Of a DNA stretch of 64,000 nucleotides, positions 2,967 through 48,733 are shown piece after piece. Source of the stretch: Microbotryum violaceum (Eukaryota); contig CDLV01000006.1 in NCBI GenBank assembly GCA_001244265.2, positions 682,001 through 746,000 on the forward strand, written 5' to 3'. The notes beneath the pieces are model-generated. The model was not told the DNA's origin. It searched no databases and worked only from the letters and a program-made list of their open reading frames with translations. How positions within the stretch are numbered: position 1 is the first letter of the stretch; each line of letters begins with the position of its first letter. The position numbers and the translations under genes are program-made.

Positions 2967-5900
2967 GTAGACAAGATCAACTACCTAGGCCCGAACCTCA
3001 AGATCATCCCCCACCAAGAATGCCGGCCACCAGGGTTGTTGAAGGAAACTCTGGTGGCAGACAACCCGATCTGCTCAACAACTTACAGATCAAAGACGCC
3101 CATCGCATCACCAATGATGTGCCCAGCCCCACCCCCCCAGAGCGAATGATAACACCTTCCCCGGTTCCCCTTGATACTCTTGTCTCCTTAATCCCCATAG
3201 TGGTTGATTATCTGCATTGGAAAGAACGCGCGTGCGTACTTGAGTCAGATAGAGACAGATCCAAGAGCAAGGAACCAGGGAAAGCTGGAGAGTCAAGTAA
3301 AGCGCTACTACTTCTGGGAGAGCAGGTGGAAGAGACATTGACCCCCTATGACCCTCCTCGCCCGTTCTCCGAATCACCGGAGCCCCCGGAAGAGAGCGAC
3401 CCCCCGCCAGAGGAGAGCGAACCCCGCTTCCCAAACCATCGGAACTGGCCCCTACCACGGAGCAACCAGAAGATGACCACCCCCTGACTGCAATCCAGCA
3501 CGACAACAAGAGCCCGTGCATAGGCACCCCGGAAACACCCGATGACACGCCCGCCTTCCCGGATCTCGACAACGATATGGACGACGCATGTCTACAGGAG
3601 CTCCAACAGGCCCAGCCGCTTGAAGTCCACCCCGAATCTGAACAATCAACAAACGTGACAAGGCCGAAACCCCCGAGACCGGAACGCAGGCGGCCAGTGG
3701 TCAAATTGCTCAAGCAACGGCGCAAACTGACATGGCCCCCAGACAAGGGCAAGACGACCTTGGAGGACACGGTTGCTGCAGCGCTTCGAGGCCGTCTGTT
3801 CAAACACCCAGCATACGTGGGGGCCCCAGGTAGTGACGATACATCCCGCCAGCCCTTGATCGCCATCGTGGACGACGGGGCGGAAGCAATTGTTCTAAGC
3901 TCCGAATGGTTCGAACAGATGGGAGATGCTCTTGGGCTCACTGTGCGCACAAACCCCGGGGAGGACAGGGCTTTCACAATGGCGAATTGCTCTCGTCACA
4001 AGCTTCTTGGTGACATTGATATTACAATCTCTATGGGGAACTCTACGGCGACTGTAACGGCACAGCTCATGCCTTCGGGGGGCCTATACGACATAATATT
4101 AGGCAAACCCTGGAAATCAGCGATCAACGCGATTCACTTTTCCACCCTCGACTTGATCATGTACCCCATCAAGAACAGCCTCTGATACGGGAAACTATGG
4201 AATCGTAACCCATTGGTGACACCGCGTTTTACTAACGTCCCAGATGATCCGCGAGACGTGGTCACAATGCTCGAGGAGCACTGGCTCCGGTCAGAGCTGA
4301 GCAATTGGACACCACAGTCCGCCCCTGACCGCGACGAATGGATCGTGGAGACATCGAGGCGCATTCTGTTAGTTCACCGCGAGAACGAAGAGAATGACCC
4401 CAACTGTGACCTTTCCAATTTCTGGACGGACGTCGAACGCGATGCAAACGCGGGTGATTCCTGGGAAGAAGCAGCCCAACACCGCCTCAACAACCTGGCA
4501 ACAGCATTCCCGGGACTGGCTACGGCACAGGTGTCTAGATCCTCCTCCCTCGATGCACGCAGAGACGAGCTCCGGCGCATAGCATTTTTAGGCGATGCGA
4601 CCGGAACCAATTTGACAACGGAAGAACGCGAGACAATTTTGTCGCTGGTTTGCGAATATGTGGATGTGTTTGCATTTTGCTTGGAGGACGTCACAGTGAC
4701 ACCAACTATCAAGCACCACATTCCCCTTTTACCCGGCCACCACCGCACAAACCCTGGTTGGGTTTCGACCATCAACTCACCCGATCAACGCAAGTTTCTT
4801 TATGAGCAAGTTGACAAAATGCTGGCCGCTGGAATTATCCGGGAAGTTGACAGGAATGACGTCACATGGTGGGCAAACTCCCGTGTTGTCCCAAAGAAGG
4901 ATTTGACAGCGGTCTCAAAGTCCAAAGCGGAGCTCAAGGAGACGCTTGAGGAAGCAGTCGCAAGGTCACTCTCGGACAAGGGCGGATGGGCAGAACAAAA
5001 GCGGCACGAGTTCCCCCACGACAAAGCGAAAGCGCCAAAGTTTCGATTGGTTCATGCTTACCTCCAGGTTAACGACGCAACCGCGAATACGGCGTTCCCT
5101 ATCGGCGACCTCGACGCGATGACGGAGAGGCTCGCGGGGAAATCGTTCATCACGTGCCTCGACATGCATTCGGGTTATTTCGCAATAGGCATGGACGAAG
5201 AGGATGTACTAAAAACCACCTTCCGTGTCGAAGGCCGCGGGTATTTCGCGTACAATGTCATGCCCTTCGGTCTGAAAGGTGCCCCCGCAAAATGCACGTT
5301 TGCGCAGTCGTCGGCCGTCTGGTGCGGATCCCACCTCTCCGCCAAAGGCAGAGAACCTGACAAGGCGAAGGTACAGGCAGTCATCGACTGGCCCAAACCG
5401 AATACACCTTGGGAGGTCTCAAGTTTCCTCAACTTTGTCGGATACTACCGTAAACTCATCAAGGGTTTCGCGGCGATCTCCGAGCCTCTTTCAGAACTCA
5501 CACGTGGTGTCCGAGTGGAACAGTCTGCCCGCCGGCAGGGCGGCTCGACCGCGAGAGGGGCTTACAAGAGGGCAATGAAAACTCGACCTATGGACTGGAA
5601 ATGGGGACCAGAGCAATAAGAGGCGTTCTTGGCAATCAAAAGGGCCTTATCAACGTTTCCCATTTTGCGGTCGCCAGACTGGAACCAGCCCTTCATTGTT
5701 GAGACGGACGCCAGCAAGAAAGGGATGGGCGCCACACTATCACAACGCTTCACGTACGCCCATTCCGGAACAGGAGAAATGGTTACTAGGACCCACCCAA
5801 TCGCATTTGCCTCGAGGCCAACATCGGCAGCTGAGAAAGCGTACCCGGCGTTTCTGCTCGAGCTAGCATGTCTCAAGTGGGCAACGGACAAGTATGAGAA

Positions 5901-7859
5901 ATACCTCTTTGGCAACCAGGTCGAGATTGTCACGGACTGCATTGCGTTGGCGGGCATTCTGTCCAACGAAAAGGTGAACCATAACCACGTCCGATGGAGG
6001 GAAAGTATCCTCGCATTGGATATTGTCAAGTTCACGCACCAACCCGGGAAACAGCATAACGCGTGTGATGAGCTGTCTCGAGTCGTGGAGCACCTCGAAT
6101 CATCTGAGTCAATATCTCCGGAGTCCAAGTTACCTATCGATTGGGACGAATACATCCAGAGTACAGGGCCGCGCCAGGTGCTCCTTCTGGCGGAAGCGAC
6201 AGCTTCGGCGGAACAGGGCAACGACTTGGCCACGCCCTTGTTCCCAACTCAGCCGGATGACGGGCTGGCAGACCAAGTCATGTTCCTTGAACAGGCAACT
6301 GCATTGACCGCACTGGATGCCCGGTACAAGGAAGAACCCCTGTTTCAACCATTGGTGACATTCTTGACAACATGCCAATTCCCCACCGGGGCATCACACT
6401 CGGAGAAAGGCCGCCTCCGCCAGCTGGCTAGGCGCTACGCAATCCGGGCCCCGGATGTCCTGCTCTTCAAGCAAGGTGAAAAAACCAGGGAGTGCATCCC
6501 CCTCCATGAACGACAGCAGTTGATTGAAGACACGCACACAGCGCTGAACCACGCGGGAAGAGATCTAATGGTGGTACACCTCTCTGAACGGTTTTACTGG
6601 CCCGGTATGGCACAATCGGTCGCTCCAGTAATTGTCACATGCGACCGATGCCAACAATTCGGGAAACGCGTCATCCGGTCCAAGTTATGGCCGATCACGG
6701 TGCTAGCACCAATGGACCTTCTGGCAATGGATTACTTCTCCTTACCCGCGAGCCCCAACAAGTACAAATCAGTCCCAGTGGTCACAGATCTCTTCTCCCG
6801 CTATGTATGGGCCTTCAAATTCAAAGGAGAAGGCACAGCAAAACGCACCATCGAAGGATTGGTTGAGATCATCAAGACCTTTGGAACGCCACGGATCCTG
6901 ATGAGCGACGGGGGAACCCATTTAAGAATGCAAAAGTCGAGGCGTTCTGCGCAGACAAGGGCATACTCCGCATCACTACCCCGCCCTATGCACCGCATAC
7001 CAACGGGGCCGTGGAAGGAGCCAACAAACGCATTCTGCAAGCGATTTCCCGCGCTACCGTTGGATCGGTCGACGCAACCACCTTCTCACCCTGGTGTCAG
7101 TCACTTGAAGCGGTGGTGTACGCGATGAACAATAGGATTATCCCTGCCACGGGATATCGACCAGCGGATCTGATGTTCAACTTCGCGAGGTCGATGCCTT
7201 CCGAAGGGGCACCCCCCGAAGAGCAAGCAATCGAGATCCTCGCGCACGCGCTCACGTCGTGGGCAGACCTGACCCTGAGGGCAGCATGCATGGTCGCGGA
7301 CGCAGAGGGACGTGTCTCGACAACGTACCAGACCATGTTGGACGCCCAAGCACGCCGGAAGGAGGCCAAGGACCGCCAACTCCAACGTTGGACCAAAGCC
7401 ATTCCGAAAGACGAAAGGGACCGCCCATTCAGGAGAGGCGACCTCGTCCTTGTTCATGCCTCTTGGCTTGAGGCAAGTCGAATTGGAGGAAAACTTCAGG
7501 CACACTGGCTGGGACCGTACCGTGTGGTGGCTCCTGCTACACGCACAGACGACGCGGACAACCCCAGTGACGAGCACGTGACGTTCTGGCTCGAGTCGCT
7601 GGAGGACAAGTCGCCGGTAGCTGGACGCTTTCACGTTAACCGGCTCAAGCTATTTCACCCACCGCACGACTTCCCGATCCCAACGACAGAACCAATGACC
7701 TTGGACGAGTTTCATGCAGCACAGCGACCTAAAACACAACCCCCTCGTACCCAGAATGAAGACCTACCAGGGGATGTCTTGGACGACGACACCGACACCG
7801 AGGATGAGGACGGAAATCGGAACAGGCACGACACGGCCAACGTCCAACGCAGGTTCTGA
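2955..7859 (+). pseudogene. pol (protease, RT, RNase H, integrase), disrupted
   Basis: Protease AIVDDGAE...YDIILGKPW; RT LDMHSGYF and MPFGLKGAP; RNase H VETDASKKGMGATL; integrase H..HAGR...CDRCQ, MDYF, SDGGTH. In-frame stops at 4183 and 5617, a frameshift near 6925, and no YxDD. Confidence 0.93.
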
Positions 7860-19682: not shown

Positions 19683-20853
19683 GGTGGCTTGCTATCGAGA
19701 CAAGGTATACGGTTCCTGCCCAGATTCGTACAATGTGCTGAGTAGTGTCGGACGAAGAAGGAGAGTGCGGAACTCTTGCGGAAAGTGTGGCGAGGAGAGC
19801 TGCAGAGTAAATGGGCGGAGCGCGACGTCCGGTGTGGGCGGTGGCGCGCTCAACACTGCCCTGCTCTGCTCAAGCATCGAACTCGATGCGATCAAATTCT
19901 GTCATATAAAGTTTTCGAGCTTAAGCGGGCCCAGTATGATTGGTCTGGGATTCAGGTTTTTTTTTTACGTAGGCACGATCGAGCGTTTATACCTCGTCCT
20001 ATGTCTTGAATCGAATCCCGACAGGTGCATACATGCGGACCTCCCCAGAACGCCGAGGAAGCAAAAGATGAGTTTTCGAAGGCACTCACCCGAAAGAAGG
20101 TGGTACAACATTTTGGACCAGCACACTCATGTCATAATCTAACCCACCTGACTCCCAGCTGCTCGGCCTTGAAAATCAAGCGGGCACTAACTTTGGCCGA
20201 CAGCTCCTCAGCGGATGCATGAGATTCGCAGGCGTCGAGAACAGACATAAAGATGAATAGAAGAGGATACTTTTGTTTGGGTAAGGTAGAAATTATCTAT
20301 ATGAGAGGTTTACTAGATCACGCGCTCAGGTACGTCAACACCGCTCAAGCCTGCTCAGGAGACAAGATGAGTTTTATGATACTACCTTATCAATCGAAAA
20401 TGGGGAAGAGGTTGAGATGTTGGAGCCCAATGATGGGGCCAGTGAAAAAAGCAAAGAAGACGGAAGGGGTTTACGTCCTGAACACCCTAGGGTGCCAGCG
20501 AAACCAATGCCTGAGGCACGCCTTGATGCTGACCTCAAAGGGCTTTCGGAGCGATACCGAGTCTTTGCTCGAACAGTTTGTGGCCGTGGGTGATCCACAT
20601 AATGGAAGGTAAAGGGGAGAGATCGATTCAAAACCTCGGGGGTGAGGCACTGAGACGGTGGTACTCGAAATGCTCGTCGCGCCGGGGGTGGACAAATTGC
20701 GCGTCACGGGGACCGACGCACTGCGTGCGTGGACCGCATCTCCTGTCGGAAGCGGACCGACCTAGCGAGTTTCGGAATGAATCTGAGCCATAGAGGGGCA
20801 TGACAAACAATTCGTTTATGACAGTCCTCGGAAATAGGAAAGGTTCTAGACTA

Positions 20854-21101
20854 TGTCGTTTGATATGTGTCTGTGCCTGTGGTATCTGCGCGGATGCGCG
20901 TGCGTTTAGTCATTAGTCACTTTGGTATTGGAGTTTGATCTGTTTAAGTTAGGGAGCGCGCGGGGCTTTTCTTCCCGCGCGGCTGTTTACTCTTGGTAGC
21001 TTTCTCATCACTCGCTCTACATTGTGGTCCTGACTTCTCGGTCTCGGTGTCGTGCACCCTCACCTATCGGAAGGCTTTACTTCCGCGCTCTCATTGTTTC
21101 T

Positions 21102-21139
<38 letters not shown>

Positions 21140-21416
21140 AAGCAGTGAAACGTTGTCAGTAATATTGCAGAAACGATGAGAGCGCAGAAGTAAAGCCTTC
21201 CGATAGGTGAGGGTGCACGACAATGACACCGAGAAGTCAGGACCACAATGTAGAGCGAGTGATGAGAAAGCTACCAAGAGTAAACAGCCGCGCGGGAAGA
21301 AAAGCCCCGCGCGCTCCCTAACTTAAACAGATCAAACTCCAATACCAAAGTGACTAATGACTAAACGCACGCGCATCCGCGCAGATACCACAGGCACAGA
21401 CACATATCAAATGACA
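20854..21416. repeat. About 250-bp inverted repeat around a T35 tract and a 29-nt spacer
   Basis: Arm 20854-21102 is the reverse complement of 21168-21416 with about 6 mismatches. T run at 21104-21138. Confidence 0.95.
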
Positions 21417-22190
21417 GACTATAGTAAAGACTCCATTGAAACTAGGGGATTGCGAGGGATCTCGGATAGGTCTGCTGGGCAAAAGCAACGCATGGGTGGT
21501 GAATGAGGTAAGGTGGAGTGAGGTGCCGAGATGAGACTGGGAAGGATTAGGGAGTGAGAAAGGAAACTGTTGGTCGCAGGAAGGAAGGAAGCAACTTGAG
21601 AGAGTACGACTATCTCTAATCATTCTGGAAAGGTTGAAGGAATATTTGAACGTACTAGGGCCCGGGGGCGCTGTGCGCCCACCTCGCTGCGTGATTCAAG
21701 GTCGTGGCGAGCTCGGTTGGGAAAATAGGAACTGCCGGAACTGAAAGTTACGGAGACCAAAATGTTGGGCTGAACTGAGAGTCGAACTCAGATCCACTCC
21801 ATTCATTATGTTTCTTCTGACCTCTGAGCTACTCACCCAGCCGGAACAGGTGTAGGCGGCGGCGCACCCGGGTCAGGCCGGCGGCGGTTCTCCCTGGCCC
21901 CGTGCGCAGCTTACGCATCTTGCGTTCGCCGACGATGCTGTGGAGAGGCGGTGGTGTCACCGGTGGCATTGTCGAAGCTGCAAATACTGTCGCAGACGTG
22001 TTACACGGCGACCTGTGAGAAGACAAACACGGACGTGGTACAAGGCGACCTGTGGGAAGACAAACACGGACAAAACGCTTGTGCTACCTCTCGGACACGC
22101 TTCGGGACGAGACTGCGCAGGTGTTGCCGACAGTGCAGGAGGGAGGGAGCTTTAGGTGGTGCGGCTATGCCTTCATTCGCTATGGTGAAG
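21104..22190 (-). mobile_element. Probable 3' end of a non-LTR retroelement (minus-strand poly(A) and 3' UTR)
   Basis: The minus strand ends ...CACTGCTTC(A)35 after a pyrimidine-rich UTR-like stretch, with decayed Cys/His-containing ORF pieces upstream. A 28-bp direct repeat lies at 22007-22034/22044-22071. Confidence 0.45.
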
Positions 22191-23822: not shown

Positions 23823-26153
23823 GCTCAACTTCGCAGCCTCGAGAGTCGTCCCGACTCTCGTCCCGACTCTCGAGGCCGCGACCTTTCGCAACCTCTACTT
23901 GCCATCAACCTGGATCTTCCTCTTATTTTCAACATAAAGAAGTACCTGACATGGCCGTCGCTGTTCTTATTCCTGGATAATGAACAACAACGCTTGTTCG
24001 TCGCTCTTCACTCAACTCCCCTATGGGTTGACACGTCGATGAAGAAACCCAAACTACTCAACCCGTTTGGACTCCCCTTCCCGACCGAAGTGCAACGTCT
24101 CCTTTCCAACAACATCAAGTTCATACCCCGACCCCACATTCACAAGATGAATCCGCTCGCGGGGTATGATCGACTTGAACGATCAGTTCGAACGAACTAC
24201 CTCTTCCGCAAGGCGGAAGAGAAGACCGGCCGTGATACCTTCATTCCGAAGCTTCACGTCAAGAGTCTTGATTGGTCTCCGCCTCGAGCGAGCCTAATTA
24301 TAGAGAAGGGTCTACGACTTGGTCGCAATACACTGCTACAAGCCGTTAGAAACGCCGACCCCACTTTGTGGCGTCCGAACCTCTCTATCAGTACGTTACG
24401 TTCTCTTGGACACCTGATGATCGAACACGACTTTATTGTCAAAGCATCAGACAAAAATCTAGGTTTAACCGTGCTCCCGAGAGAATGGTACATCAACGAG
24501 GCACTGAGGCAACTCAGTGACACGTCGACGTACACCGAACTGGATCCTGCCAACCATGACGCCGTCATACCGACACTCATGTCCGCTCGATATAAACTTG
24601 TCTCCAAAGTTATGTCTTCGCCGGAGTTGTTCAGGATCATCCCCAAATCAGCTGAGAAGTTCCTTCTGCAACTAAGTACGGACGACGTGAAACTCCCCGA
24701 GTTTCACCTCCTACCAAAGCTGCACAAGAAGGCCATCGCAGGAAGGCCCATCGTACCATCATACGCATGGGTGACGTCTCACGTCAGTATCTTCATTGAT
24801 ACCCTATTACAACCCATCCTTCAATCGTTCCCATGGATTATTAGAGACTCGAAGGACTTGCTTCGCAAGCTCCTCGAGCTTGAACTCCCGGACGACGAAG
24901 TCTGGATTGTGACTGCAGATATTCGCTCGATGTACACCAATATTCCTTCCACGGAAGGTGCCAACGTCGTTGCATATCTAGGCCACACCTTCTACGAGAC
25001 GAATCAGGCCCCGTGGGACAACTCTGTCCCGCCGGTCCCGCCGACCTCCACACCTCCACCATATGTCCTCAGACGTGATGAAGACTACCTACATTCCGAA
25101 ATCTGGCGAGATTTCTGTACGGATCACTTTATGGAGGCCTCTGGAGAATCGACGACGACAGAAGAAGACATACAGCCGTATAGCTACGCTCGCGACGGGT
25201 TCTCGGACCCGCGCGTGGCACCGCCGAACGACGATGTCTTCTCCGTCAGGGAATTCTTGCAAGAATCCCTATTATTCGTTCTCAACAACAGCTTCATCGG
25301 CTTTCAGAACAGAGTCTGGCATCAGACCTCCGGCACCGCGATGGGTACTGCAATGGCTCCCGCCTACGCAAACCTCTTCGTTGGCGCTTTTGAAAGGGAA
25401 TTAGACATTCCGAACGCCGATAACATTGTATTCTACGGTCGATATATCGATGACGTGATTGCCATAATCAAAGGTCCCCGTGACAATGTCGATAAGTTTG
25501 CCCAAAGCCTTAACGATATTCACCCGAACCTCGTCTTCGATTTTGAGATTAGCAACACCGGTCTTCCCTTCCTCGATGCTTTTGTATCGTTGAACCCCGA
25601 CCCGTCGAGCTCTGGCAGAAAGAAGAGAATCTCTACGAAACTCTATCAGAAGCCACTCAACACGTATCAATACATCCCATGGTCATCGTTTCATCCGGTC
25701 GACGTCAAACTCGCCTTTGTCAAAGGCGAGCTGATTCGATACATCCGTTTGAACTCGTCCAAAGAAGAATACCTCAAAACGATGTTACTCTTCTACGGAC
25801 GTTTAAGAGCTAGGGGCTACCCTCCTCGATGGCTTAAGAAAGCATTCTCACAAGTGCAGTACGACGATTTTCGTGCAAAGTCCCTTCTGGTCTCCCAGAA
25901 GAAGGACTCAGACACGAAAGTTCCGTTGTTCTTCGTTACCAAGTATAATCCAATCTGGGACCAGGTAGATGCATCAGTTGTACTCAATGCCATTGTCCAA
26001 GATTGGGACCCAGCTACTCGAGCTGAGGTCACGCACAATCCAAAACTGCGTATTATGCGAAGTCGCAGCCGAGCTCCGAACCTCGGCGACATCGTTAATG
26101 CACTTAACAAGAAGGTTCTCCATGGACCCAGCATATCCCCCGACTGCCGTTAG
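23823..26153 (+). CDS. Penelope-like reverse transcriptase, uninterrupted frame, no endonuclease
   Basis: KFIPRP, KASDKNLG, LPKLHK..GRPIV, TADIRSMYTNIP, GTAMGTAMAPAYANLF, YGRYIDDV, FLD, YQKP..QYIPWSSFHP, KGELIRY. Ends soon after RAPNLGDIV. The frame is open from 23823 and the first ATG is at 24039. Confidence 0.93.
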   Translation, partial: AQLRSLESRPDSRPDSRGRDLSQPLLAINLDLPLIFNIKKYLTWPSLFLFLDNEQQRLFVALHSTPLWVDTSMKKPKLLNPFGLPFPTEVQRLLSNNIKFIPRPHIHKMNPLAGYDRLERSVRTNYLFRKAEEKTGRDTFIPKLHVKSLDWSPPRASLIIEKGLRLGRNTLLQAVRNADPTLWRPNLSISTLRSLGHLMIEHDFIVKASDKNLGLTVLPREWYINEALRQLSDTSTYTELDPANHDAVIPTLMSARYKLVSKVMSSPELFRIIPKSAEKFLLQLSTDDVKLPEFHLLPKLHKKAIAGRPIVPSYAWVTSHVSIFIDTLLQPILQSFPWIIRDSKDLLRKLLELELPDDEVWIVTADIRSMYTNIPSTEGANVVAYLGHTFYETNQAPWDNSVPPVPPTSTPPPYVLRRDEDYLHSEIWRDFCTDHFMEASGESTTTEEDIQPYSYARDGFSDPRVAPPNDDVFSVREFLQESLLFVLNNSFIGFQNRVWHQTSGTAMGTAMAPAYANLFVGAFERELDIPNADNIVFYGRYIDDVIAIIKGPRDNVDKFAQSLNDIHPNLVFDFEISNTGLPFLDAFVSLNPDPSSSGRKKRISTKLYQKPLNTYQYIPWSSFHPVDVKLAFVKGELIRYIRLNSSKEEYLKTMLLFYGRLRARGYPPRWLKKAFSQVQYDDFRAKSLLVSQKKDSDTKVPLFFVTKYNPIWDQVDASVVLNAIVQDWDPATRAEVTHNPKLRIMRSRSRAPNLGDIVNALNKKVLHGPSISPDCR

Positions 26154-33898: not shown

Positions 33899-35687
33899 AT
33901 GGACGCGATCGAGCTTCCCTTTGATCTGGTCGAGTTGATCGTATTCGCACTCGAGGATCGACAGAGCCAGGCTTTCATTCACTCGGCTTGCAACACCTTT
34001 TTCGCGCCAACTGCCAAATCCACGCGCGCAAACTCGTCGACCACGGGGACGGAGGCATATGTAGCGGTTCGACAGGAACCCTCGGGATGCTGGCCCCTCC
34101 TACCTCAAGGATGGAGGGACTATTTTGAAGCTGTCGACCCAGCCCAGAAGGGCGAAGTACTCCAAGACGTCGCAGATGGCAAACTGCGGGTGAGCATCGC
34201 TCGGTGGCCTGGCTTCCAGCGAGAGCTCATCGTTGCGTCGAGTCCAATCGCTCCAGGATGATTACCCGCCATCTCTCTCGTCGTATCTCGACTCGTGCCG
34301 AAGCCTTTCGTTCGATCGCACATGTTCCCCGATCCCGATCTTGGCCCATCCACCGCGCTCACCATCAGGGTACGGACAGCCAGGTCACGTGCCAAACGAC
34401 ATCGGTGTCGGTGCCGCCCCTGACTTCAAGTTTGACCCATCGATCGGCACCAAGGGAAGGAGACTACGACAGGGACAGAATCCCAAGAAATCTCACGAAG
34501 TCGATCGCTTCTCTCACCTCGTTCAAGAGATCAAATCGACCAGGCCCGGGATCACGAACATCATCGACGTCGGCTCGGGAAGGGTGAGCTCGCGTGAGCG
34601 CTCGTCTCACGCCCGCTTGATCAGAGAGCTGACGCAGTGATCGTATCATATGCTCATATAGGGACATCTATCACGTGTACTCACGCTGCCACCCCTGAAG
34701 CTCGATGTTCTCGCCGTCGATTGGTCGTCACGGCAGATCTCGGGATCCGAATATCTCGAGACCCTCGGCAAAGCACCTTCGGCTCCTAACCAAATCGAAG
34801 TCCAGCCATCCGTTGATACACCGGCAATGAGCCTAGCTCCCGACAAAGGCACCTTGACTCATCTCACATCTTCATTGGATGCCCCGTCGATCGCGCAACT
34901 CTACGCCCTGCCCCAGGCTGCCGAAAATGCCGAGCCACCAGCACGAGACGTCGAGCCAGCAATGTTGATCACCTTGCATGGATGCGGCGACTTGACCATC
35001 TCCGCACTCCAAGGTCTCTTTCTCGCACCTTACTCGCTCCCGACTGCGATCCTTGTTGGCTGCTGCTACAACCTGCAAACGCCTTCCTCGTTTCCGCTTT
35101 CTGATTGTGTCGCTCGAGCGCTCGGCGCCACCTCACTAGGGTCAGAAGCGAAGCAACCAATGACACGTTCACATCTAAGGATCTCACCTCAATCTCCTGG
35201 GTTGTGGTACCTCACCCCCACGAGTCAACAAGAGCTCAAGGAATCGATCGTCAAACTGGGTTATCGAGCACGACTTGAAGCCGAACTAGCGGCCCAAGGT
35301 TTAGGCTCCGAAGGGCAACGTCGTGTAGGAAGGGTGTCCAAGTCGCAAGACTTTGACGACTATCGTCTCAAAGCTTTGAGCAAATACGGCGAAACGGAGG
35401 TCCCTCGCTTGAGATTCGGGCCCGACGAGATGGGCGAGGAAAAGGCTTGGATCGAGGCGTTGTACCAGTTGCAGGTGTTTTGGACGTTGAGGTGTCATCT
35501 GGGACCTGTTCTGGAGACGTTGTTGGTTTTGGATAGGTTCGCATTCTTGGTTGAGCGGTTGGGGGAGGTTGAGCAGGAGCAGGAGCAGGAGCAGGGTTCG
35601 TCGAGGAGGTCATTGGTGTTGGAGTTGAGAAATTTGTTCGATCAGAGCTCGGGGAGCGTGAGGAATATGGCGCTGGTGTTGAGGTAG
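33899..35687 (+). CDS. RRNAD1/METTL25B-like SAM methyltransferase (Methyltransf_32), 3 exons
   Basis: KKSHEVDRF, IIDVGSGRGHLSR, LHGCGDL, VGCCYNL, LETLLVLDR, and a terminal S-RN motif. Confidence 0.85.
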
Positions 35688-36068
35688 AAAGATTGAAATC
35701 AAGTCATGCTTCAAGAAGACATAAATCAGCTCCTTCCAGCTGGCTTCGTATAGCACTCGAGTCGATGACGCACCGAGATCGACCACTCGCCCAAGTTTAA
35801 TTTCCCATCTGTCGATTTTCCCAGGTTATTCTCGTCGTGCGAATGGTGCTTCATCCCTTCGTCTCGAGCGCATTTTTTGTGGAATGGGATAGGTGTGAAT
35901 AAATCTTGTGCCTGGCCATGGAGCTGTGGTGGCGTTTTTCTGAATATTTAATGGTAGGCTCGTGCTAAAGAGCGAGTTGGCCCGTGCTAGAGCGCTAGAG
36001 CGCTAGAGAGCGATGAAGGAAAAAACGGCGAGAGGAAAAACAGGAAAAGAGGCGAATTGAAACTTTTC

Positions 36069-36154
36069 CTGCTCGTTTTAGCTGACTGCTCGTTTTAGCT
36101 GAGACGTTTTTCTGAGGGGGGCGGCGAAGGCGCGCGCGCAGAAAGCTATAAAAG
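36069..36154 (+). promoter_or_regulatory. U3 promoter: 17-bp tandem repeat and TATA box
   Basis: CTGCTCGTTTTAGCTGA twice (36069-36102); TATAAAA at 36147-36153, about 40 nt before the predicted U3 5' end. An RRPE-like TGAAACTTTT lies just upstream. Confidence 0.55.
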
Positions 36155-36189
36155 CCGGGTCCAAGGTGCAACCTTCCTTTCTCTTCTTC

Positions 36190-36790
36190 AGACCACACTC
36201 AGTGAGCAAAACCGCACCAACATGTTCGCATCCACCTTGCCACCCCAGCCCACTGACCCATACATCCCCTTCATCGTCACCTTCTTCCTCTGCGATTCTC
36301 CTCTACTCCTGCCTCATAGGTCAGGATCTATTTACAGGTTAGTCGCTGCTTCCTGCTTCACTGCCTCTTTAGCTTCGCAGCCAGCCAGCCTGGTCGCGGC
36401 GCTTGCGAAGCTCGAGCGGCCCTAAGCTACCATCGAACACGTACTGACCTCATCCACCTCGCCCCTTCACTACCCAACAGTTCCTTTCCGATGTTGTCTT
36501 GCTGACTCAGAAGAGCCACAATTCGTTTGCGGGTCACGATGATTGATCGGCCGTCATCACCGTTTCGCAGAGTGAGAACCTTTTGCCTATGCTTCCTCTT
36601 TTTGGCCTCGGTCTTGAGGAAGAGGACGTGGGCTCGATGAACTCGGCCGGATTCACCTTGCCTTCTTTATGAAAGTACTGTCGTGGCTCTTGGATTGGCT
36701 CGCTTGCTTGGCCTCGTTGTCATTCAAGACCCTTCTGTTTTGGAGCCTGTGCGATCCGTGCCTGGTGGTGACGGACCTTTCTGAACCTGC
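36190..36790 (+). ncRNA. U3: U3 snoRNA with two spliceosomal introns (36202-36319, 36338-36480)
   Basis: Spliced 5' end GACCACACTCA-GTCAGGATCTATTTACAG (GAC/A'/A boxes), then AAGAGCCAC, box C' GATGA (about 36538), box B AGAGTGAG (36569), box C GATGA (36636) and box D CTGA (36781). Terminal stem GCGGGT/ACCTGC. Confidence 0.85.
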
Positions 36791-38074
36791 CACAATCAGT
36801 TGTAGTTGCTTTCTTTTTGTTGTCTAGTAATGATAAACGCCCCGAGTTGTGCTCTGAACCTTCCTGACTTGTTGCATTCTGCGAGAAGTAAAAAGTAATC
36901 GCTTTGCGAGCCTTGAGGCCTAAGGAGCTTGCCAAGCTCGAGATGCACCCTATCCAAGTTGGCTTGATCCTTTCTCCAGGGGCCCGGGACCAAGCGAAGC
37001 ATAGATATAAGAACTGAAAGCAACAAAATCATAATGCCGTAGTAGTGGATGGATTCCCTCATGTTGTCGTTCGGCTCTCCTGACCACTCGCGCGAGTCGT
37101 AGCGGAATAGTGGTCCGAGTTGCAGCAAGACGAAGGACAACATATGACAATTGGGAGCTTTGCGACCCAAGCTTCTGGATGTCAGTCGGCTGCAACTGAT
37201 GAAGGAGCAAGTCCACTGATCGTCTCAGCATACCTTTGCGACAAAGGCAAGACACTGTATAAAGACAGTTGTGGCGCGGTTGGTGCAAAGGACGGCAAAG
37301 GGTCTGCTGAGAGATATGCGATTTAGCTCGTTGCCCAACAAGGACTCGGAGCAAAATGCCCCCACAAAGAATTCGCAGGGATCCAAGTGCAAAGTACACC
37401 GTGCAACAAGCTTGGGTGTCTCGAAGCACTTACCTCGAGCTACTCTAAGCGAGCCACGTCGAGGGTTTCATTACGAGCTGCTAAAAGCTGTGAACGTCCG
37501 GCAAGATGGAACTCTCGATCAGCGACCTCGTCAGCTGGGAGGTAGTCTTGGGAGTGAGGAACGCACCTGTCCCTACAGGTGGTGAACGCAGCCACAGAAG
37601 CTGGTAAGGAAACGTCGACAACGCAGTGAAGGCCCAAAAGGGAACGTGCGTTGCGAGTACCGCCCGTGAGCCCGCGTGTGTAGGAAGCACAGCTATAGCA
37701 TCCACGGGGGAGAGAGGGTCCGTGCGCGCGAGCCCGAATCGGCGCAGGACCCCCGAAAGCCCAGCCGGAGGCGCATTTTTTTTTTTTTTTTGACGTTTTG
37801 AGGACCCAAAATCCTGAAAATCGTCGAAGCGCATTGCAAAAAATTGACATTTTGAGACGAAACACACGTTTCGCCCACGAGGCGCATGTCCAGATTTTGA
37901 CATTTTCCCGTGAGTCGGCCCAATTTTGGCCTACCGCATGACTTTGGGCCGGTTTGCCTTCGCTTCGAGATGCTCGCGCTTGAACAAGTCACTTAGTACT
38001 AGCCATCTTCGGTGATCACTTGAGTTAAGTGGCTGTGAGGGATTAGGCCGATTAGATATTGAAGGGGCGCACTA

Positions 38075-38973
38075 TTTCGAAGCCTGGGATTTGGTGACAA
38101 CGCTGAACCCCCCCGAACTTTCCAAGAGCCCGAATCTGGAGCGGTGGGCAACACACGTCCTCTACTTCCCAGCAGGCCACGGAATCCGACTCTCGGTGAA
38201 CCCGACGCTTTTCCGAGGACCCGATGGCGAGGTGATGACTCCGTCTTCGTTTGTGAACGCGTCCAAACGCCACCAAGCCTTCCTCTACCCTCCTATCCTC
38301 CCTCTCGGTCATCAGAGGGTTTTCTGTCTCCCCGAGCAACGCTGGAATGCCTGGTGGAAGGCGCTACGCAAGATTCGCAGGGTTCATTCGGACGCCGAAG
38401 ACACGGCCCACCTCCTCTCCCTAGGTTCACTTCATCCAGGTAGCCAAATCGCTTCTCCAAATAGCCGTTCTCTCCACAATCGATCTACCGCATGTGTCAT
38501 GTGCCTGTCGGAGGCTCCGGAGACCCTGGCACACCTTGCGGTCGGTTGCCCGTTTGCCCGCCGCCTCTGGTCTGCGCTCACTCCTATCCCACACCCCGAC
38601 TTTGTTCAGTTCGTGTGCCCGGTCGTTTCTCGCTCGGAACGCCGACCCGTCGAGCTGCGTCTACTCTTCTTCCACGCGATCTGGAAGCTCTCTCGTCGCC
38701 GTCGATTTTCGTCGGATCCTCTGGAGCCGATCGCCGAAACGGCATTTGAGGAGCTCCGCGCGTCCATCCAGGAGTCCAAGGGACGACTGGTTTCGCTGTA
38801 ACCGCCTAAGGGGTTTTAGTGGGTATGGTTGATTTTGTTCCAAGGTCAACGAGTCCCACACTACTGGCCTCGCCAGTGTGCTTAACTGCATTCCCTCCGT
38901 CTTTTCCGAGGATTTTTAGGCATTAATATAGATATGCTGTTAATGAAATCTATTAGATAAAAAAAAAAAAAAA
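38075..38973 (+). mobile_element. Young 5'-truncated L1/Tx1-like LINE (zf-RVT end, 3' UTR, A15)
   Basis: CVMC..ETLAHLAVGC zinc finger and a poly(A) at 38959-38973. Near-identical to the reverse complement of 40431-41323. Confidence 0.92.
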
Positions 38974-40430: not shown

Positions 40431-42815
40431 TTTTTTTTATCTAATAGATTTCATTAACAGCATATCTATATTAATGCCTAAAAATCCTCGGAAAAGACGG
40501 AGGGAATGCAGTTAAGCACACTGGCGAGGCCAGTAGTGTGGGACTCGTTGACCTTGGAACAAAATCAACCATACCCACTAAAACCCCCTTAGGCGGTTAC
40601 AGCGAAACCAGTCGTCCCTTGGACTCCTGGATGGACGCGCGGAGCTCCTCAAATGCCGTTTCGGCGATCGGCTCCAGAGGATCCGACGAAAATCGACGGC
40701 GACGAGAGAGCTTCCAGATCGCGTGGAAGAAGAGTAGACGCAGCTCGACGGGTCGGCGTTCCGAGCGAGAAACGACCGGGCACACGAACTGAACAAAGTC
40801 GGGGTGTGGGATAGGAGTGAGCGCAGACCAGAGGCGGCGGGCAAACGGGCAACCGACCGCAAGGTGTGCCAGGGTCTCCGGAGCCTCCGACAGGCACATG
40901 ACACATGCGGTAGATCGATTGTGGAGAGAACGGCTATTCGGAGAAGCGATTTGGCTACCTGGATGAAGTGAACCTAGGGAGAGGAGGTGGGCCGTGTCTT
41001 CGGCGTCCGAATGAACCCTGCGAATCTTGCGTAGCGCCTTCCACCAGGCATTCCAGCGTTGCTCGGGGAGACAGAAAACCCTCTGATGACCGAGAGGGAG
41101 GATAGGAGGGTAGAGGAAGGCTTGGTGGCGTTTGGACGCGTTCCCAAACGAAGACGGAGTCATCACCTCGCCATCGGGTCCTCGGAAAAGCGTCGGGTTC
41201 ACCGAGAGTCGGATTCCGTGGCCTGCTGGGAAGTAGAGGACGTGTGTTGCCCACCGCTCCAGATTCGGGCTCTTGGAAAGTTCGGGGGGGTTCAGCGTTG
41301 TCACCAAATCCCAGGCTTCGAAAAAGCGGATCCATCGTGGAGGGAGCAGGGCCTTCGTCTTCCTCACTGCGCGTTCCCACTGTGGAGGAGGGTGGCAAAA
41401 GTAGGCCCACCAGATCCAGACCCACGAGCGACGATGTGGGTTGGGGCCTGATTTGGGCAAGGTAAAGGGGGTGCGTTCGTTCGCCGCCTGAAGGCGAGTG
41501 CGGATGTCGAAGAGGTGCCGAATGAAGCAGCCGTCCGGGTCCCGAAGATGAAAGACCCACTTGGCGTGATCGACCGCGAGGCGCCGAGGTAAGTCAATCA
41601 AGCCAAAGCCGCCGTGGTCGAGAGGGGTGCAGAGGCGCAGCCGAGAGACCTTCGGGGGTTTCTGAGATCCGTCCGAGGCTCGACCGTGGATAGCGATCAT
41701 GACCGCGTCCTCGATCTCCTTGACGACGCTCTTGGAAGCTGGGATGAAACGATTATGGTAGAGAATCTTCGTGTAGCAGTAGATATTGATTATCGAACAT
41801 TTCGCTGCGTACGGAAGGTCGTACATTGGGATGGATCGTATCCGGGCGACGGTCGCGGACTTGACCTCCTCCCAGCCCGCATCCTCGGCGATGTCCACCC
41901 CAACCTGCACTCCCAGGTAACGAAACTGCGAGTCGCTGAGACGCCAGGACCCGAGGTGTGAAGGGATCGGACGGTCCCTGAATGACCCGAGGGGGTAGAG
42001 GAAAGATTTGGCGTTGCTGAGCTTGCTGGCACTTGCCCGCTCGTACAGCTCGATCGCCCGATTGAGGTGGTCGAGGTCCGAGGTGTCGTGGAGAGCACAG
42101 CAGGCATCGTCGGCAAAGAGAAGTTCTCGTATGGTTGGGAGTCCCGGGCTCGCGATGCCTTGACTTGTGACCGCAACTGTACGGCGAAGCCCTCAATTGC
42201 GAGAACGAAGAGCGACGGAGCCAGCGGGTCGCCTTGTCGAACTCCCGAGAGGATATCGAACGCGGCCGAGAGCCATCCGTTGAGGTAGATTGAGGCGGAT
42301 TGGTTTGTATAGGTCGCTCGGTACCATTGGCAGGCTTTCGGGCCAAGGCCAACGGCGCTGAGGACTGCATCGATGTAGGTGTGGGAAAGACGGTCGTAAG
42401 CCTTCTCGAAGTCCATCACTGCGAGCAGACCGGACACCGGCTCTGAACCCGGGAGCCCAGGATCCATGAGACACTGCACCTCGGCGATGTTCGTGCCAAT
42501 CCAGCGGTTCGGAATGAAACCGCGCTGGGTCGAGCCGATCAGGGTCTCGAGCAGAGGGGCAAGGCGCTGGTTGTGGGCTTGGGAGATGATGCGTTCATCA
42601 GCGTTGATGAGTGATATGGGGCGTTTGTTCACCAGCCGATCCCTCTCGCCGCGCTTGTGGATGAGGTGGATGTGGGCAGTGTGGCGGGCCGACGTTCGAG
42701 AACTGGCGTCGTCGGTGGGGATCGAGTTGATGACGTCGCGGAGGATGGGGCCTGTGGCTGTCCACGTTGCGCGGTAAAACTCGACCGGGAGACCGTCGGG
42801 TCCAGGCGAGGAGTT
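40431..42815 (-). mobile_element. Young 5'-truncated L1/Tx1-like LINE (RT to poly(A)), one frameshift
   Basis: SSPGPDGLPVEFY, RPISLIN, DFEKAYDRL, GVRQGDPLAPSLF, a 1-nt frameshift near 42158 before LFADD, GGFGL, zf-RVT, and T8 at 40431-40438. Confidence 0.94.
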
Positions 42816-45800: not shown

Positions 45801-48733
45801 TCGACTCGCCGCGTCGTTGACCTCGATGTGGGGTGCACGGTCCCCTGTCTGCGATTTTGCTTCAGACCCGTACCCCGCTCCATCGGCCTCGCTCTGCGCT
45901 TTGGGCGGCGCAAACGCCATGATCCGTGCACCACCCTGGTCCCTGGTCACGTTTGAACGAGTTCGGGCCTATACCAGTATCCTCCCACCCGTAAGTGCTT
46001 CCCTTCTCGTTTGCCCTTGCTCTTGCTCGATCGATGTCCATCGGGTGGCACGGCCGACGCTTATCCGTTGATGGTGCTCCCATGCTGACCCCCAAGTCTA
46101 CCAATACATGATCACCCCCGACGTTCCCTAGCCCCGCAAGGGGTCATTCGGCTCTGCCCCCGGATGACACCACTTTCAACCTAGCTCGTACCGCCCACTG
46201 CTCAAGAACGGTGAGTCGGCTTGTCATGCGACGTTGCTGCCCGCACTAATCGACGGTCGCACAGTAAGCGGTCGCATAGAGGAGGTCGCCTCGAGGACCC
46301 CCCGATCTGATGGTGCTTACATTGCCACTGGACGAGCCCGGTGACTGACACTGCCATATGTTCATCGCTCTGCACTAGCTCGAGCTGGACTCTATCTCCC
46401 ATCGAGAATGATCTGCACGTGGTCGGGGTACAGTAAGTGATCAAGCCTCGGCTGACCCGTTTCGGGCTTTCGGACTTATTCTAGACATAGAAGAGGAGAT
46501 GATGGGGTTGGACCGTGAGATGGAGATGACAAAGTGTAGAATATTCTGCTCGTCATACTCACAAGACATCGAAGTATGGTGAGTCAGTTCGTGCGACGTT
46601 CCCCTCTGGCCCTCGCTCGGTCGCACAGGGGCGGGTGGGGGGTTTTCGTCTTGGACTCGACCTCGCTCGATCATGCATGGTCATTATCATCATCATCAGC
46701 CATCATGGTCATCCATCATCATTCATCATCATCATCGTCATCATCCAGAAGTCGCGGCCATATCAGGCGGTCGTAACGTGTAACGCATACCAGGGTGTCC
46801 CGTGAACGCAACTGGACGGGCTCACCTGTCACGTAGGGGCAGAGAAGGTGCATGCAGAGCACTGAAGCTCAGCTCAAAGTGTATTGATACAACTCGATCA
46901 CTGACCGTTGATCGCTCACGGTGGGGCGTTTTCGAACCCAAAGACAGATGTTTATTCGAACTGTCTCGCCGTCCATGATCTTCGCAGTATGTCGTTGTGG
47001 TGCAGTGTCCAGAGGACTGCAGCTCGAGGCTCAAGATAGGTAGATACCTGCCCCTCCAGCTACCCCTTCCCCTCCCCGAGCTATGCTGCATTGAAACCAT
47101 CTTTTCCACCGTTGTAAGCCTTTCGACGCTTGGTGGGAGCACTCGGCACGAAATGAACAGGTGCATACAGTCGCTGGCTTCCAGTTTCAAAACATCCCTT
47201 GAACATCGTTATGATGGTGGATCCAGGTAAACAAACTAGGACCATGGGCAGGATCTAGCCAGGTATGAAGGTGCAGAAATATTGAGATTGTTGTGCACGT
47301 TGTGCCGTACCGGAGTTAGTGTCGGTGCGCTGTCGCAACGACACGCTGTGTGCTACAACCAGCGACGAGCGATGGCCGGCTTCGTCTGAGTCGTCTCGGT
47401 CTCGCCCCTTGAGACCTGAGCTGAGGTAGACCTGAAGGGCAAGGATGCTATAGTCACGTGGCGTGGCAAGACAGCTTTATCCTGGCTTCATTTGAGCTGA
47501 TCTAAGCACAGCAGGCAGGGCTCAAGCTTCGATCCTCGCGTCGAGGGCAAGCCTTTTCACGGCTGAGTCACCAATGGCCGCGGCCGCCGTGATGTCGTGG
47601 ACCTTGGCTGCTCTTGTTTCACGTCGCGACCTGTCCCCACGCGCGATGCCACCGGCCAAATTATCTCTCACAGGATCACTCATGACGATTTTCCTCTCTC
47701 GACGGTTGTAACAAGGTAAATGGGCATGAACATCCACTCGAGTTGGGCATCCGCCACTACCTGATAGGTCGGCAGACTGCAGCCTATAGGTCGTACGTCG
47801 GCTAGCCCTCGGCACATAAAAGTCGTACGTCGACCAGCGGGAGCAGTGGCTCGGCCTTTAAGAGCAGAATTCGCCATCGTTGTTCGGCACGCACCAGCCG
47901 ATTTTCGTCGACCCCGACCCCGATCGATTCCCTGAAATTACATTGGGGTGCGGTCAGCGACTATTTCGCCGGGTGTTGCCACCTAGCACCTCAGTAGTTC
48001 CCTTTCATCATTTTCAAGGTGTTTCAAATGGGAAAGGCGACTTTGGCAGATCAGCGCACGGTCGGTGGAGGAAAACCAGCAGGAATTTTCTGCGTGCACT
48101 GGATGGTGGATCCGCTGACGACAGGTGGCAGCTGTAACAAGACCGAAGATTCCCGCGAGCACCTAAATCTTGACTCTCGATTCAAGCCGACGCGGAACAG
48201 CGAGCTAAGGTCTTTGAGGTCTCGGATCCAAGTCCGACGGCACTGTCTCGGCGCGACGCAGGGTGGCCCAGCTCAAGGAAGTGCTAGCGCACGACCGGCG
48301 GAGGAACGCACGGCACCGCTTGCTTAGCGCGGCCATGGAGGGCGGCGGGAGCGGAGGGTTCAGCAGGTTCGACAGCCAGAACGATGTCTCACACCACGCC
48401 AAATTCTTTCTCATTATGTGCGAACCCAAGCAAGGTCGGGCGACTCAGGTACACGGTGTCGTGTTTGAGTGATTAGCAAGCGCTCGCTTCATTAGCGACA
48501 GGTTACTCGTGATTTGTGAGTCCGCGGGACGTAGGTAAGGCCTAAATGAACTGTCCACGGCTTGAGGGGCAGCCGGCGGCCTCGCAGCAGCCGATTTCGG
48601 TTCCGGCAGTTTCCGGCCACGTTTGTGGCACCGCATCGGTAGCTCGCCCCCGGAGACGAAGATGAATCATTTCCCTCCATTTTTCTACCTGCACACCCGC
48701 AGCTTGACCTGTTGACTTCTCCTCGACCTGGAA

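Follow-up and report, generated by a model that had tools for sequence, protein, structure and literature searches.

The 64-kb stretch of Microbotryum DNA analysed here (hereafter the window) probably contains an independently transcribed U3 snoRNA gene with two spliceosomal introns, each of which would split stem-loop M1. RNA polymerase II would start transcription about 40 nt downstream of a TATA box, and the spliceosome would then excise positions 36202-36319 and 36338-36480. This would leave exons of about 12 nt (with a box A'-like motif), 18 nt (with the box A core) and about 310 nt, which together make up an RNA of about 340 nt. The 3' domain of this RNA, with its C'/D and B/C motifs in nested helices, is expected to assemble a U3 snoRNP, while the spliced 5' end would pair via CAGGAUC with the 5' end of the 18S pre-rRNA. 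The features of the locus are, from upstream to downstream:

36069..36102, + strand: perfect 17-nt tandem duplication, two copies of CTGCTCGTTTTAGCTGA, forming a repeat family of 100% identity 45 nt upstream of the TATA box
36147..36153, + strand: TATA box TATAAAA, identified as a sequence motif
36190..36201, + strand: proposed exon 1, 12 nt, with the box A'-like CACTC, ending directly at the GTGAGC donor
36202..36319, + strand: proposed intron 1, 118 nt, with GTGAGC, ACTGAC (36252-36257) and TAG
36320..36337, + strand: exon 2, the 18-nt micro-exon GTCAGGATCTATTTACAG, with the box A core GGATCT within CAGGATC
36338..36480, + strand: proposed intron 2, 143 nt, with GTTAGT, TACTGAC (36442-36448) and CAG
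36481..36790, + strand: exon 3, about 310 nt, with the 3' strand of M1, the hinge region and the entire U3 3' domain, from motifs and folds
36529..36534 with 36785..36790, + strand: terminal stem GCGGGT/ACCTGC, 6 bp, in the MFE and centroid folds
36536..36542, + strand: box C' ACGATGA, which fits the relaxed consensus WYGATGA (PMC5832005)
36551..36561 with 36764..36774, + strand: inner helix CCGTCATCACC/GGTGGTGACGG, 11 bp and perfect, from sequence and folds
36569..36579, + strand: box B AGAGTGAGAAC (AGAGTGAGAA at 36569), identical letter for letter to the Fungi_U3 consensus, with the core AGYGA
36634..36640, + strand: box C TCGATGA (CGATGA at 36635), aligning to box C of Fungi_U3
36781..36784, + strand: box D CTGA, with the 3' strand of the terminal stem directly after it

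Every string that the sequence-only reading had listed was recovered in its place, both by direct reading and with a script. In-silico splicing yielded 340-343 nt, in agreement with the mature length of about 340 nt that had been proposed. In these figures the 5' end of exon 1 at 36190 is a guess and the 3' end of exon 3 is approximate.

Upstream of the gene, a script search for the string located TATAAA at 36147, i.e. 43 nt ahead of the proposed start, and this was the only copy between 36100 and 36850. The 17-nt duplication further upstream may, speculatively, be an upstream promoter element. An 11-nt repeat, CGTTTTTCTGA, found at 35933 and 36105, is another possible promoter element. For the Homol D box, a motif of fission yeast, no match with at most one mismatch was found between 35915 and 37588. 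Over the whole window 40 Homol D-like matches were counted compared to 53.7 expected, i.e. fewer than by chance. A run of five T residues is located within exon 3 (36599-36603), and such a run would terminate RNA polymerase III. Together with the spliceosomal introns it argues for RNA polymerase II, by which we infer the locus to be transcribed.

Exon 3 carries the U3 3' domain. Its boxes follow each other in the order C', B, C, D and are nested inside the 6-bp terminal stem and the perfect 11-bp helix, in which all pairs are formed (6/6 and 11/11). In the MFE as well as in the centroid fold the terminal stem brings box C' and box D together. When 36529-36790 was folded alone, a free energy of -93.8 kcal/mol was obtained (z = -2.17; 4/200 shuffles as good). 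The structure has the nesting expected of U3: outermost the terminal stem, followed by C'/D and the 11-bp helix, and within these further hairpins, both in the B-C interval and downstream of C. For comparison we used the study of Canzler, Stadler and Hertel 2017, which describes 310 U3 genes from 147 fungal genomes, 138 of them with introns (PMC5832005). There, the fungal U3 consensus is WYGATGA for box C', AGYGA for the core of box B, RTGATGA for box C and CTGA for box D. Box C of the locus keeps the GATGA core and differs from its consensus at the first two positions.

Rfam at the gathering score returned no match in the whole 64-kb window, and thus no rDNA either. A permissive Rfam scan of the genomic DNA gave a local match to Fungi_U3 (RF01846) of 15.4 bits, 80 bits short of the gathering score of 95 bits; its E-value was 0.28 when 1 kb was scanned and 0.09 for a scan of 320 nt. 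The match aligns 36568-36687 to positions 108-249 of the 274 model positions and takes in box B (AGAGUGAGAAC), box C (CGAUGAACU) and the hairpin between them, while model positions 1-107 and 250-274 stayed unaligned on the genomic sequence. Fungi_U3 was the sole small-RNA clan signal at the locus under permissive thresholds. When only the 5' part of exon 3 (36481-36582) was scanned, Rfam returned no U3 match. The permissive scan revealed no second U3 in the entire window, and a blastn comparison of 36100-36850 with the window revealed no paralogue. Box order, nested helices and the local Fungi_U3 match thus bear out the proposed identity as a U3 snoRNA gene. The standard Rfam scan misses the gene because of its introns. 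Since the locus is missed at the gathering threshold, routine annotation would probably miss it as well, in line with the expectation that it is likely unannotated.

Box A belongs to the 5' side. Exon 3 contains no GGATC and the core GGATCT is found solely on the 18-nt piece at 36320-36337, such that box A is supplied by exon 2 only. We calculated duplexes with a universal primer sequence as a proxy for the 18S 5' end of the organism. With this proxy, exon 2 reached -12.4 kcal/mol compared to -6.4 ± 2.6 kcal/mol for shuffles (23/1000 as good) and the spliced 5' end reached -12.2 kcal/mol. When exon 2 was omitted, the proxy duplex dropped to -5.0 kcal/mol, and 806/1000 shuffles were as good. 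Published mean values for the U3/18S duplex are -12.17 for fungal U3 vs -7.30 for random controls (PMC5832005). Box A is thus predicted to be complementary to the 18S 5' end, as judged on the proxy.

The micro-exon is flanked by intron-like sequence on both sides. In either proposed intron CTRAY is matched just once, by CTGAC, and the next AG after this site is the acceptor. Both introns conform to the pattern described for fungal U3 introns (PMC5832005), with GT-AG ends, an RCTRAC branch site (ACTGAC in both) and a YAG acceptor (TAG and CAG). The donors GTGAGC and GTTAGT each have one mismatch to the consensus GTRWGT (PMC5832005). As had been proposed, sequence bearing canonical intron signals thus separates the box A core from the other parts of the RNA. 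Intron 2 is conventional, with 33 nt from TACTGAC to the CAG acceptor. Intron 1 has a pyrimidine-rich 3' part, a donor with C at position 6 and, with CTGAC at 36253, a distance of 63 nt from the branch to its TAG acceptor. Among fungal U3 introns TAG was found as acceptor in 8/137 and CAG in 129, and a branch-to-acceptor distance above 36 nt occurred in only 4% (PMC5832005). The assignment of intron 2 is more secure than that of intron 1 and exon 1. A GTGAGC donor also starts the intron of a neighbouring protein gene (34584-34700), which is a single example.

In the spliced RNA positions 1-50 folded into one hairpin, the predicted M1 (z = -2.26; 12/500 shuffles as good). In this predicted structure exons 1 and 2 provide the 5' strand and the loop, with exon 1 as the outer 5' strand, and exon 3 provides the 3' strand. 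The splice junctions would accordingly be placed by this single-sequence fold at 12/13 in the 5' arm and at 30/31 at the 3' base of the apical stem. The pairing of exon 1 with exon 3 was not distinctive, ranking 52 of 309 alternative upstream 12-mers. Neither the whole 5' domain (z = -0.46, with a weak M2) nor the full spliced RNA (z = -1.24) was unusually stable, and thermodynamic stability is a weak test here.

How often such a constellation arises by chance was estimated from random sequences. The descriptor of the 3' domain consisted of WYGATGA followed by AGAGTGAG, GATGA and CTGA, plus two helices, one outside C'/D with a minimum of 5 bp and one that pairs the C'-B spacer with the C-D spacer over 8 bp or more. 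Within the window it matched solely the U3 locus on either strand, and among 1000 random 64-kb sequences with the dinucleotide frequencies of the window it matched 2. With box B cut to AGYGA, the looser descriptor matched 11/100 random windows. For the box A region we used random stretches of 436 nt. While GGATCW was present in 11,852/50,000 of them, GGATCW followed by intron-like signals downstream occurred in 110/50,000. Intron-like signals that ended at most 6 nt upstream of the motif were seen in 131 of the 11,852 GGATCW-bearing stretches (~1%), and signals on both sides in 0/50,000. All descriptors were composed after the locus had been seen, such that these chance figures are generous. 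Despite this, the motif constellation at the locus is clearly not random.

Intron 1 is the weaker of the two. As an alternative we weighed a U3 gene with a single intron (36338-36480), whose mature 5' end would be near 36296, with TACTC at 36304-36308 as box A'; 36202-36295 would then be untranscribed or a leader, and the intron-like signals there would be coincidental. Box A' with the sequence TACTY is nearly perfectly conserved in fungal U3 (PMC5832005). Exon 1 with its CACTC does not reach this consensus by one mismatch, whereas the TACTC within the proposed intron 1 is exact and is the only TACTY nearby. The one-intron 5' end would also form a stronger duplex with the 18S proxy (-15.6 kcal/mol; 8/1000 shuffles as good), and the signals of intron 1 (GTGAGC, TAG, 63 nt from branch to acceptor) are the weaker set. 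However, no TATA-like element is present 25-45 nt upstream of 36296, whereas a start at 36190 would suit the position of the TATAAA at 36147. The perfect TACTC lies 15 nt from GGATC rather than about 5 nt, and such a motif arises easily in a C/T-rich tract as is typical of the 3' end of an intron. In addition, intron-like signals abut box A by chance in just the ~1% of cases given above. The fold of the one-intron RNA sequesters box A against the pyrimidine tract and lacks M1, and its stability is not unusual (z = -0.23). Overall, we regard a single intron as unlikely and retain the two-intron gene as the preferred reading.

A further possibility is suggested by the surroundings of the locus, which lies in a transposon-rich stretch. 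Retroelement remains were found at 3352-7859, 23823-26153, 38016-38801 and 40597-42192. They include a gypsy-like pol (4186-7128) with reverse transcriptase, RNase H and integrase domains as well as several reverse-transcriptase and zf-RVT fragments with broken frames. The upstream neighbour of the U3 locus is a gene with a Pfam Methyltransf_32 domain (34389-35684), which over a 286-aa query has 94% identity to a protein of Microbotryum saponariae; the matches that follow, Leucosporidium among them, have 42-48% identity. By this the window is assigned to a Microbotryum species. Its 117-nt intron (34584-34700), which begins with GTGAGC, seems from the protein alignment to end with AAG and not with YAG.

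Two other elements of the window gave small-RNA matches below threshold. An inverted repeat at 20846-21424 consists of 257-nt arms (20846-21102 and 21168-21424) that are 96% complementary and are separated by a 65-nt spacer, in which about 39 T residues follow each other. The repeat gave sub-threshold matches to plant microRNA precursors on both strands (MIR4208, 64.7 bits, cut-off 140), which most likely merely reflect the long hairpin. A transposon duplicated in inverted orientation may be the origin of the element, or it may be a locus for a hairpin RNA. On the - strand, 46695-46747 matched the archaeal Rfam family sR5 in a box C/D snoRNA-like manner (24.3 bits, cut-off 40, E = 0.18), probably by chance.

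In such a transposon-rich region the U3 sequence might be a decaying or non-functional copy, with one or more working U3 genes elsewhere in the genome. The abundance of retroelement remains in the window would fit this, as would the very low Rfam score and the deviations of box A', the downstream part of box A and box C from the published consensus. Fungal genomes usually carry up to three U3 copies (PMC5832005), which would leave room for such a copy. Against decay speak both nested helices, which are intact in every pair, and the four boxes of the 3' domain, which have all kept their cores. Likewise, donor, branch site and acceptor are kept in both introns and the TATA box is in place. A decaying copy thus appears rather improbable to us, and a probably working two-intron U3 gene stays the preferred reading.

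That the region is no U3 gene at all, with the motifs assembled by chance or with a protein encoded by the 67-aa ATG ORF that had been reported and does exist at 36222-36425, would agree with the missing Rfam match at the gathering score, but is extremely improbable given the 2/1000 and 0/50,000 random matches to the 3' domain and to the box A and two-intron arrangement, U3 as the only clan-level signal in Rfam, correctly placed and ordered, and an ORF translation that is low in complexity, rich in Pro, Ser and Leu and spans the pyrimidine tract. Neither this translation nor those of two neighbouring ORFs had an exact match in a collection of 15 billion proteins. The suspicion that the locus may have been miscalled as a 67-aa protein thus found no sign in its favour.

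Among known U3 genes, those of Saccharomyces cerevisiae (snR17A/B) reportedly have one spliceosomal intron each, as is said to have been described by Myslinski et al. in 1990. In yeast the intron separates box A' from box A and sits in the 5' arm of M1. Such an intron position, a first exon of small size and independent transcription would be common to yeast and the present locus. The yeast genes differ by having one intron instead of two, no micro-exon and a box A' that fits TACTY. Of the present locus, box B, box C and the intervening hairpin align to the Fungi_U3 family (RF01846); the yeast 3' domain scores well with this model, whereas the locus reaches 15.4 bits only.

A closer counterpart is found within the class. 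Microbotryum belongs to the Microbotryomycetes (Pucciniomycotina), as does Rhodotorula graminis, both of whose U3 copies are among the four U3 genes for which two introns were predicted (PMC5832005). The two-intron layout is therefore no new phenomenon, and an internal exon of such size follows from the layout. Common to Rhodotorula graminis and the present locus are two predicted spliceosomal introns per U3 gene; Rhodotorula graminis differs in order and genus, and the comparison is with its published description (PMC5832005). Fungal U3 introns are located almost exclusively in M1, 133/138 of them in its 5' half, and three of the four second introns interrupt its 3' side (PMC5832005). For our locus the single-sequence fold would place the junctions at 12/13 and 30/31 of the predicted M1. 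Microbotryum is not mentioned in the text of that study. In our literature search it was the only source on two-intron U3 genes, and the search returned nothing on U3 in Microbotryum. A Kuraishia paper considered as a further two-intron U3 report was rejected, as its 'two introns' concern protein genes.

A far-reaching extension would be that the Microbotryomycetes inherited the two-intron U3 with its obligatory 18-nt box A micro-exon from their ancestor and have conserved it throughout the class, with splicing as a control point of ribosome synthesis. We consider this very unlikely. If it were true, skipping of exon 2 or intron retention would yield a U3 that, its 3' domain being intact, still assembles the snoRNP but is unable to pair with 18S, and the level of active U3 would be set by the capacity of the spliceosome.

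The locus is a sound annotation and a further case of a two-intron layout that is already known, and it leaves the knowledge of how U3 works unchanged. Its value is first the correct annotation of an essential non-coding gene that a standard Rfam scan misses. Furthermore, a second order of the Microbotryomycetes joins the few fungi for which a two-intron U3 has been predicted. This is relevant to whether U3 acquired its introns in a single event or several times, which was left open (PMC5832005). Finally, with an internal exon of 18 nt, this non-coding RNA offers a small natural system in which the recognition of micro-exons can be tested.
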